From a virus, in the UHGV virus genome UHGV-0263858: a stretch of 28,280 nucleotides of DNA. The stretch is one strand, 5' to 3'. The stretch's first letter is position 1, and every line of letters begins with the position of its first letter. The notes under the pieces are model-generated. The model was not told the DNA's origin. It saw nothing but the letters and a program-made list of their open reading frames with translations, and made no database searches. Of the stretch, positions 27,396-28,144 are shown in pieces. Both the position numbers and the translations under genes were made by a program.

Positions 27396-28109
27396 TTAGT
27401 ACCTTTCTTTGATTTTACTCAACTTACCTGCATAAGGCTCAAGTATTGTTTTAATTAATGCGCCGTTATCTGTAAGTTGCCTTACTGCCATATTGCATGC
27501 TTCGACAGACTCTTCACAACTCTTTTCAATTTTATTCTCCAGAAGAGAATAAATTATAAAGGATATCTTTAATGTTTTAGACTTATTTTGTTCTTTATAA
27601 GCTCTGTCAAAAATCGTTTTATATCTTTCTGAGATATTTTTAACTTTAGCATTTAAAGCGTAAGAATGACACTCCGCGCTTGGTGAGACTATTTTTTTCG
27701 CATTGGAGCACAAAAATTCTACACTATCGCCTTTGTTAAGTGATTCTAATTCATTCTCTGAGTCTCTATCGTAATAGGCAAAAAAAGGGCCATCTCCATC
27801 ATCAAGAATGACATAAGGTCTGCCATTTAAACTTCCTTGCTTAATCGCCTTTACTGTTGAGTTTAGAATAAATGTGTCTTTATACTTTTTCTTTGCCCTC
27901 AACTCATTATCATTAAAATCGTTTATTATCTCAGTTATTGAATATCTTTTAAGCCCATCAATATACTGATCGGCCATCGCCACACCGGTCGGCAAGAAAA
28001 ATGCAAACGCCTTGCTGTTGCTGGCACTTATGTATTCATTATCAGCGGCATAAGACTGAGACATCGAGAGTACAATAAAAAGTGAAAGCAATTTAATTAG
28101 TTTATGCAT
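27396..28109 (-). CDS. hypothetical secreted protein (AT-rich gene, N-terminal signal peptide)
   Basis: Start chosen at ATG 28109 (MHKLIKLLSLFIVLSMSQSYA/ADNEY, SD AGGTGA); the ORF track starts at GTG 28118. The gene is visibly much more AT-rich than the phage genes. Family not recognised. Confidence 0.6.
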   Translation of the reverse strand: MHKLIKLLSLFIVLSMSQSYAADNEYISASNSKAFAFFLPTGVAMADQYIDGLKRYSITEIINDFNDNELRAKKKYKDTFILNSTVKAIKQGSLNGRPYVILDDGDGPFFAYYDRDSENELESLNKGDSVEFLCSNAKKIVSPSAECHSYALNAKVKNISERYKTIFDRAYKEQNKSKTLKISFIIYSLLENKIEKSCEESVEACNMAVRQLTDNGALIKTILEPYAGKLSKIKERY

Positions 28110-28118
28110 AAATATCAC

Positions 28119-28144
28119 CTATTGAAACAACGGATTTTCAATAG
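28119..28144. promoter_or_regulatory. 9-bp perfect inverted repeat CTATTGAAA-(8 bp)-TTTCAATAG abutting the SD of the secreted-protein gene
   Basis: Read directly; positioned like an operator or a 5'-UTR hairpin. Confidence 0.3.

Follow-up and report, generated by a model that had tools for sequence, protein, structure and literature searches.

A moron in the Q–lysis slot of Escherichia coli prophages, predicted to encode an exported OB-fold protein behind a leader that probably folds into a hairpin

Introduction

What is an AT-rich gene for an apparently secreted protein doing among the late genes of a prophage, and how is it controlled? This question is raised by the right-hand end of the virus genome UHGV-0263858, of which the whole stretch analysed (28,280 nt, hereafter the window) carries the gene on its minus strand. 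The identical sequence in E. coli STEC005 is named "OB-fold protein" in RefSeq. An earlier note on this DNA had drawn attention to the gene, its signal peptide, its terminator and a palindrome at its ribosome-binding site. In this study, the limits of the inserted DNA, the encoded protein, the leader and the relatives of the gene were investigated by computation. The region is very likely a moron that encodes an exported OB-fold protein.

Identification of the inserted cassette

Occupied and empty forms of the site were compared. The prophages RM11911 and NS-NP030 have the order Q, ORF6N, a single terminator, an open reading frame (ORF) of 65 amino acids (aa) and a methylase gene, without the OB-fold gene. 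The same backbone interval was ~225 bp in these prophages versus ~1140 bp in STEC005. The 65-aa ORF is present at the empty sites as well and is therefore a backbone gene. In the junction alignment, the empty site had one terminator, AAACCCGCCGATGAGCGGTTTTTTTT, and the occupied site had two related terminators, AAACCCGCCGCCGAGCGGGTTTTTTG and AAAACTCGCCGCTAAGCGAGTTTTTTTT, flanking the cassette. The two copies agreed at 21 of 26 positions and differed by a compensated stem change from CCCGC/GCGGG to CTCGC/GCGAG. A further 50 E. coli genomes, RM11911 and NS-NP030 among them, matched only positions 27300-27375 of the window by megablast, the match ending at 27375. In E. coli SE11, the slot (L024 3831-6291) was filled by an opposite-strand ompC-like porin gene and an IS5-family element. 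Because collinear prophages have an empty site and SE11 has alternative cargo, the cassette is an insertion. The region is very probably a moron of ~886 bp in a cargo hot-spot that has the Q antiterminator on one side and the lysis genes on the other. The coordinates of all features are given in Table 1.

The G+C content of the gene was 0.343 (0.319 at third codon positions) against 0.512 for the whole window, which agreed with the strongly different base composition described in the earlier note. The proposal made there of a horizontally acquired moron was strongly supported by the empty sites, the exchange of cargo in SE11, the deviant composition, the rarity of the gene and its prophage location. 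Such an origin would be contradicted by a match to a periplasmic protein family conserved in hosts and placed in host synteny; this was sought and not found.

The core of the 3' terminator (27351-27378) begins 18 nt past the stop codon and is enclosed by a perfect palindrome (27339-27354 / 27373-27388). An A-run and a T-run lie on its opposite sides. It is structurally bidirectional, but no gene converges on it. The bidirectional terminator noticed earlier was thus real, but it was not purely the gene's own: the backbone terminator is duplicated here, and this is one of the two copies. The upstream copy was found whole in L001 at 20990-20969. The two terminators may serve as recombination substrate for cargo exchange in the slot. 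The copies considered for exchange were those at 27351-27378 and 28262-28280 of the window and also one in L029 at about 4560-4590.

Table 1. Coordinates of the features at the right-hand end of the window
Feature	Position	Strand	Description
Inserted cassette (leader and gene), approximate	27379..28264	-	~886 bp; edges are the two terminator copies; from comparison of empty and occupied sites
Cassette leader	28110..28264	-	155 nt, between the upstream junction and the ATG; junction from the empty-site alignment
OB-fold coding sequence	27396..28109	-	237 aa; ATG 28109-28107, TAA 27398-27396; from ORF and translation
Signal-peptide coding part	28047..28109	-	Residues 1-21, predicted cleavage between SYA and AD; from sequence features and an AlphaFold2 helix at 2-23
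Shine-Dalgarno sequence AGGTGAT	28114..28120	-	4 nt 5' of ATG; read from the sequence
Perfect 9-bp inverted repeat, inner stem	28119..28144	.	CTATTGAAA (28119-28127), 8-nt spacer, TTTCAATAG (28136-28144)
Predicted two-tier RNA hairpin, full length	28104..28160	-	~23 bp, one 2-nt bulge; pairs the whole Shine-Dalgarno sequence, AUG and codon 2
3' palindromic intrinsic terminator	27339..27388	.	Core stem-loop 27351-27378; diverged second copy of the upstream terminator
Upstream terminator, loop, 3' arm and T-run	28262..28280	-	AAACCCGCC-GCCGAG-CGGGTTTTTT; 5' arm past the window end
65-aa ORF after the cassette	27029-27226	-	phrog_331 (unknown function), weak winged-helix matches; own terminator 27025-27042

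The distribution of the gene was narrow. Of 5426 complete E. coli genomes, nine contained the 981 bases around it, seven of them at 99% identity or more and two at ~81%. The carriers at the higher identity came from goat and mutton (Shiga toxin-producing E. coli, STEC) and, in one case, from a human. The gene lay inside a prophage in all four of the nine carrier genomes that were examined. The protein had no match in 50,697 deposited phage genomes by megablast or tblastn, and a scan of the GTDB species-representative genomes gave no relatives. In IMG/VR, three loci were found, all with the same E. coli-type leader.

The position of the gene within the prophage was consistent among carriers. 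The STEC005 prophage, which is integrated beside ompW, has the order Q, ORF6N, OB-fold gene, 65-aa ORF, N6 DNA methylase, tRNAs, TerB, holins and endolysin, and terminase and structural genes. In PSJ-22, in assembly L011 and in Salmonella enterica, the homologue came directly after Q or after Q and ORF6N. In L002, Q was followed by a lambda-type late promoter (TTGATT-N16-TAAATT) with the pause element AACGATGGG, the terminator AACCCGCCGCCGAGCGGGTTTTTTTT and the leader of the OB-fold gene. The upstream terminator in L002 and L011 lies directly behind a lambda-type pR' with AACGATGGG and is therefore tR' there; in L002 the OB-fold gene is the first gene behind tR'. The Q-lysis slot also carries stx genes and the nmpC/lc porin genes. 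Like the cassette, this slot cargo sits after Q/pR'/tR', is AT-rich and has exported envelope or periplasmic products. The proteins themselves are unrelated to the window protein, and no toxin A subunit was found here.

Coding sequence and encoded protein

The start given in the ORF listing was GTG at 28118. That codon sits within the Shine-Dalgarno (SD) sequence AGGTGAT, and RefSeq takes ATG on identical DNA. Among six homologues with protein identity of 63–80%, the ratio of nonsynonymous to synonymous substitution rates (dN/dS) was 0.23–0.38, with dS up to 0.98. Since this ratio holds over dS values to ~1, the gene is under purifying selection, real and functional. The homologue P0006 (L011) was mosaic: its leader and first 33 codons were nearly identical to the window, and the remainder had diverged. 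Truncated or frameshifted copies occurred in L002 (183 aa), P0009 and P0004/5. Such copies, together with rarity, are what a decaying, non-functional remnant would leave. This explanation is the least probable of those considered and was largely refuted by the dN/dS values; moreover, the cysteines were invariant in 33 diverse relatives and the window copy was intact.

The N-terminus, MHKLIKLLSLFIVLSMSQSYA followed by ADNEY, had the features of a signal peptide: K3 and K6, small residues at −3/−1 (S-Y-A) and a hydrophobic core with a mean Kyte-Doolittle value of 2.3 over residues 5-16. A lipobox cysteine was looked for in the N-terminus of the window protein and was absent. The N-termini of the relatives had sites of the signal peptidase I type or lipoboxes. 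The call was based on the (-3,-1) rule, the recurrence of this N-terminal pattern or of a lipobox in 33 relatives, and four invariant cysteines. On these grounds, the clear signal peptide reported in the earlier note was upheld. An oxidising compartment fits the protein, since the four cysteines are invariant.

The profile and structure-prediction searches suggested in that note were run and gave a PF12869 match and an OB-barrel model. PF12869 (tRNA_anti-like) matched residues 9-133 with 24.6 bits (gathering cut-off 23.5, E 2e-5), and relatives scored 42–53 bits. The close family consisted of nine clusters, all E. coli/Salmonella-like, in a word-indexed search of 5.8 billion proteins. A HMMER scan of 1.84 billion representatives gave 194 relatives at E<=1e-3, many of which were 240–270 aa long and aligned end to end. 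In a 33-protein alignment of two-domain members, N68, C134, C147, C198 and C205 were invariant and E69 was nearly so. The three-dimensional structure was predicted by AlphaFold2. With seven close homologues alone, the predicted local distance difference test (pLDDT) value was 41 and the model was unusable; with the 33-sequence alignment, pLDDT was 86.4 and the predicted template modelling score was 0.73. The latter model showed a signal helix (2-23), a long helix (32-51), an OB barrel (55-149) and a helical bundle (159-232). The barrel was five-stranded, like that of solved PF12869 members. Two disulfides, C134-C147 across a β-hairpin and C198-C205 across a helix turn, would be formed, because the cysteine pairs lie on adjacent hairpin strands and on either side of a helix-turn-helix in the model.

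The isoelectric point (pI) of the OB domain was 5.1, and that of mature close homologues was 4.7–5.1. DNA binding in the periplasm was considered and set aside as unlikely for this acidic domain. A sequence search of the PDB gave insignificant matches only, and NCBIfam gave no match for the OB protein. Compared with PDB 3F1Z, a putative nucleic-acid-binding lipoprotein of Klebsiella pneumoniae in PF12869, the window protein has no lipobox and has extra helical parts at both ends, whereas 3F1Z has a single domain of ~120 aa, 14% identity and unknown function. The window protein belongs to an uncharacterised two-domain subfamily of predicted periplasmic proteins, phrog_13333.

Probable leader hairpin and expression

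The 9-bp inverted repeat that the earlier note had placed against the SD sequence proved to be perfect and to overlap AG, the first two bases of AGGTGAT. In first-order Markov simulations with this composition, 12% of 1-kb regions contained a perfect 9-bp repeat with a spacer of 3–20 nt; for 45-nt stretches placed directly before a start codon, the share was 0.2%. Further pairing, a second tier absent from the earlier note, joined 28108-28117 to 28148-28157 across the SD sequence and start codon with 9 of 10 pairs. The predicted fold of the hairpin was −19.2 kcal/mol (z −4.8), and 0 of 200 shuffles were as stable. Between 20 and 50 °C, the predicted unpaired probability of the SD sequence was 0.02–0.035. 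An RNA thermometer was therefore rejected, as the SD sequence stays paired over this range in silico. The start site was the most occluded of 61 in the prophage and flank, with an unpaired probability of 0.07 against a median of 0.47.

Homologous leaders were then compared. The core TTGAAA/TTTCAA was invariant in all of them. The loop was 8 nt in the E. coli type versus 13 nt in both Salmonella types, and one Salmonella type had G-C at an inner pair that is A-U in E. coli. Two leader changes yielded G·U pairs. The Salmonella leaders had a different outer stem, ACCAGUA/UACUGGU, which again paired part of the SD sequence. In the leader alignment, 82.5% of cells paired versus 34–53% with slid partners, and the covariation score was reached by 11 of 500 shuffles. 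An Rfam scan of the leader gave no family match; only isrK/C4 upstream and a sub-threshold STnc370 on the terminator were returned.

The palindrome could also be a DNA operator, CTATTGAAA-N8-TTTCAATAG, on which a dimeric regulator would repress transcription. The perfect symmetry, the invariant core and a location at the gene start that is improbable by chance (0.2%) are compatible with this explanation. However, no promoter was found for it to control, the half-site spacing shifts from 8 to 13 nt between clades, and the symmetry runs on into the second tier, which pairs SD and AUG. One of the changes, C→T in L022, breaks the DNA symmetry yet keeps a G·U pair in RNA. In a comparison by eye with consensus sequences, GATAATGAT of clade B matched 9 of 19 positions of the Fur box and was not kept in clade A, and FNR-, CRP-, TyrR- and LexA-like sites gave no fit. 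An operator is thus an unlikely explanation. An RNA element was favoured because the arm spacing varies and the changes are compatible with G·U pairs, and the palindrome is probably an RNA hairpin. The operator-like character given to it in the earlier note was not supported, as the predicted hairpin hides SD and AUG.

The lambda N gene has an RNase III-sensitive structure upstream, a leader hairpin that blocks translation. The predicted hairpin resembles such phage leaders in being a long, near-perfect helix over the SD sequence and start codon, and its ~23 bp lie within the RNase III range; its sequence is unrelated.

A 13-codon upstream ORF (28119-28160, minus strand; MMNIITIENPLFQ, then stop) spans the entire hairpin, with its stop codon within the SD sequence of the main gene. 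Its translation would unfold the hairpin. The ORF persists in L033. Because it is broken in L022 and has no counterpart in the Salmonella leaders, translational coupling through it was not adopted as an explanation. Another perfect 9-bp inverted repeat, TTTATTCTC-N5-GAGAATAAA, lies at 27531-27553 in the coding region near the 3' end and is within chance for an AT-rich kilobase.

Transcription was investigated on the minus strand. No sigma-70 promoter upstream of the gene passed the scan threshold. The candidates found by eye, TTGACT-N18-GATGAA (8/12) and CTGATA-N17-GAATAT (7/12), were weak candidates for a promoter of the gene's own. A start from CTGATA-N17-GAATAT may fall inside the 5' outer arm, freeing the SD sequence. 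Q-dependent late expression would be expected, because there is no convincing promoter and terminators lie before and after the gene. Most transcription would then come from Q-antiterminated late transcription after induction, by the same logic as stx in this slot. The hairpin, by burying SD and AUG, would throttle translation or demand hairpin unfolding or processing. It may be relieved by RNase III cleavage or by transcription that begins within the 5' arm.

Relatives in other phages

The relatives were in temperate-phage genomes in every context examined. A Haemophilus relative with 25% identity (P0159) lies directly after Q in a lambdoid prophage. Members from Serratia fonticola and Pectobacterium brasiliense lie between the baseplate genes of E217-like myovirus prophages, and the member of Klebsiella phage ST405-OXA48phi1.2 lies inside the baseplate genes. 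P0172 is in the same module, adjoining an S24 repressor and an antirepressor, and P0074 is beside a baseplate module; members from metagenomic myovirus prophages likewise belong to baseplate modules. In Haemophilus phage HP2, cI and int flank orf1(S), which is thus in the classical lysogenic-conversion position.

HP2 orf1(S) was a full-length member of the family (hhalign probability 99.7%, E 2e-26). Like the window protein, orf1(S) of HP2/S2 has a signal peptide, an OB barrel, a helical domain and four cysteines, with 24% identity by BLASTP. Unlike the window gene, it belongs to the lysogeny operon of a P2-like phage and is not downstream of Q.

Haemophilus-type relatives adjoin a gene for a 382-aa HSDR_N (PF04313) protein (L012 8812-9960, L013 1943-3091 and L015 955-2100). 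The pair occurs in two arrangements, on the same strand and on opposite strands, and is possibly a two-gene module; PADLOC gave no match.

Relation to Sie2009 and possible function

Searches against PHROGs placed the window protein in phrog_13333 (unknown function), with a weak match (E 0.006) to phrog_8545, "superinfection exclusion Sie-like". The match of the Haemophilus relative to phrog_8545 had an E value of 6e-21. The product of orf2 of Lactococcus phage Tuc2009 (Sie2009) seeds phrog_8545 (2e-79) and itself matched PF12869 (3.5e-11). The alignment of Sie2009 with the OB domain of the family had an hhalign probability of 96.6% (E 5e-10) and included the motif NE..A..KYKGK. Sie2009 has a strongly basic N-terminal tail, one transmembrane helix, a Ser/Thr linker and an OB domain, which the positive-inside rule places outward. 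Sie2009 and SieLC3 are membrane-associated prophage proteins that stop DNA injection by heterologous phages (PMC7693887).

The features of Sie2009 were compared with those of the window protein. Both are products of prophage accessory genes in which an N-terminal hydrophobic segment for export or anchoring precedes a homologous extracytoplasmic PF12869 OB domain with dY..NE..AdkKYKGK. Sie2009 is a protein of 173 aa from a Gram-positive host, with an uncleaved transmembrane anchor and without the C-terminal helical domain or cysteines, whereas the window protein has 237 aa, two domains and four cysteines, and is predicted to be cleaved and soluble in the periplasm rather than small, single-domain and retained in the membrane. 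Sie2009 is encoded in a lysogeny module, as is HP2 orf1(S), which has the placement expected for prophage expression; the window gene is in a late operon behind terminators. AbiP and PdpSau are membrane-anchored OB-fold abortive-infection proteins of Gram-positive bacteria with a cytoplasmic, basic, nucleic-acid-binding OB domain (PMC10127798). They are anti-phage proteins borne by a prophage or plasmid and, like the window protein, combine an N-terminal hydrophobic helix with an OB fold; the OB domain of the window protein is predicted to be periplasmic and acidic. The literature searched contained no paper tying PF12869 or tRNA_anti-like proteins to prophage exclusion.

An exclusion or anti-phage function of the protein can be proposed tentatively. 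Sie2009-like action is suggested by one homologous domain and shared ecology, not by membership in the Sie2009 type. The protein would be exported by the Sec pathway, cleaved after Ala21 and oxidised to two disulfides, giving a soluble periplasmic binding protein. Its target would be a component of the envelope or, on an incoming phage, the tail tip, and DNA entry would thereby be hindered. The outcome would be superinfection exclusion, or shielding of the induced cell and its progeny. The periplasmic effector or exclusion protein of the earlier note is plausible and now better grounded by the homology of the OB domain to Sie2009. The reading as a whole, in which a prophage cargo cassette encodes an exported OB protein that has hairpin-limited translation and interferes with DNA entry, is somewhat favoured on balance. 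A wider proposal is rather doubtful: that the family is widespread in temperate phages of Gram-negative bacteria (~200 clusters) and comprises soluble or lipid-anchored periplasmic OB proteins with a disulfide-stapled helical domain, Gram-negative counterparts of Sie2009 that block genome entry, and that the hairpin of the post-Q clade makes translation depend on the transcript start or on RNA processing. If this were true, expression would differ between lysogen-type transcripts and read-through late transcripts.

Several observations weigh against the reading as a whole. The homology to Sie2009 covers the OB domain only (~89 columns, 17% identity), and PF12869 is large, with members of mostly unknown function. 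No PADLOC model matched the OB protein. Nucleic acid is an unlikely ligand for an OB domain this acidic, despite the family name. Classical exclusion proteins are expressed in the lysogen; for the window gene, no promoter was detected, and its ribosome-binding site is occluded in the predicted fold. Some copies are truncated, so the gene is dispensable. The comparison of hairpins covers only about four independent leader lineages. Among the E. coli variants, L033 has an uncompensated outer-stem mismatch and L022 has an altered bulge. Occlusion of the SD sequence in the Salmonella types was moderate (unpaired probability 0.18–0.33), and the distant family members examined had no such hairpin.

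Alternative functions

Other functions were weighed against exclusion. The protein might be a released factor like Shiga toxin (Stx), which builds up in the periplasm, is released on lysis and then targets eukaryotic cells or rival bacteria as a lectin, adhesin or effector. The slot and control resemble those of stx, downstream of Q/tR' and upstream of the lysis genes. A signal peptide and cysteines are present, STEC isolates are among the carriers, and the B subunits of Stx have the OB fold. Here, the neighbours were ORF6N/Q and the 65-aa ORF, and no AB5 B subunit was among the best structural matches. A released factor is an unlikely explanation. Slightly less likely still is a host-fitness factor of the YdeI/OmdA or YgiW kind, which would bind porins or envelope proteins and give the lysogen resistance to antimicrobial peptides or stress. 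The window protein is likewise a small periplasmic OB-fold protein, and a PmrD-like gene occupies the slot of one Salmonella prophage as a porin gene does in SE11. However, PF04076 (BOF family) was not among the Pfam hits at E<=1, and the architecture differs in having two domains and four cysteines.

A sensor of superinfection or lysis timing, that is, a late periplasmic modulator of holin/endolysin analogous to T4 RI, is very improbable. The protein is predicted to be periplasmic and its gene would be transcribed together with the lysis cassette, which follows it in the late operon, but the methylase, tRNAs and TerB separate it from the holin, relatives occur in baseplate and lysogeny modules with no link to lysis genes, and the acidic OB domain is an unlikely DNA sensor.

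Neighbouring features

Other elements were observed around the cassette. Just right of the window, between Q and ORF6N, L001 21683-21882 matched Rfam isrK (6e-17) and contained a C4 antisense RNA with a1/b1 targets. The region reads as a Gifsy-1-type antQ-isrK-orf45-anrP module joined to a P1-type C4 element; PMC4825925 was the comparison source for the Gifsy-1 module. Genes for tRNA-Gly(tcc), tRNA-Tyr(gta) and tRNA-Thr(tgt) lie at 25309-25668 of the window (minus strand), with the methylase gene on one side and the TerB/lysis genes on the other. The STEC005 prophage is without the tRNA-Tyr gene, and strain 401651 has the Gly gene only.

The PmrD-like gene (PF11183) of the Salmonella Schwarzengrund prophage lies in the Q-lysis slot on the opposite strand (L008 5342-5686), just downstream of the OB homologue. 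A second candidate moron was found at the opposite end of the window, beyond the tail-fibre genes: the gene at 1312-2052 (plus strand) encodes a zinc-ribbon and DUF4875 protein (8e-35) in a region with a G+C content of ~0.38.

Biological meaning

The findings appear to contradict nothing in current understanding: the moron is well delimited, and the tie to Sie2009 is remote but significant. The Q-lysis slot, in which Shiga toxin genes are carried, gains another type of cargo with this cassette, and the duplicated flanking terminators suggest how cargo in this slot is swapped. If the exclusion function is true, the extracytoplasmic PF12869 OB fold would be a structural handle common to Gram-positive Sie proteins and Gram-negative prophage proteins, and it would provide a tool with which to probe phage DNA entry at its periplasmic stage, which is poorly understood.

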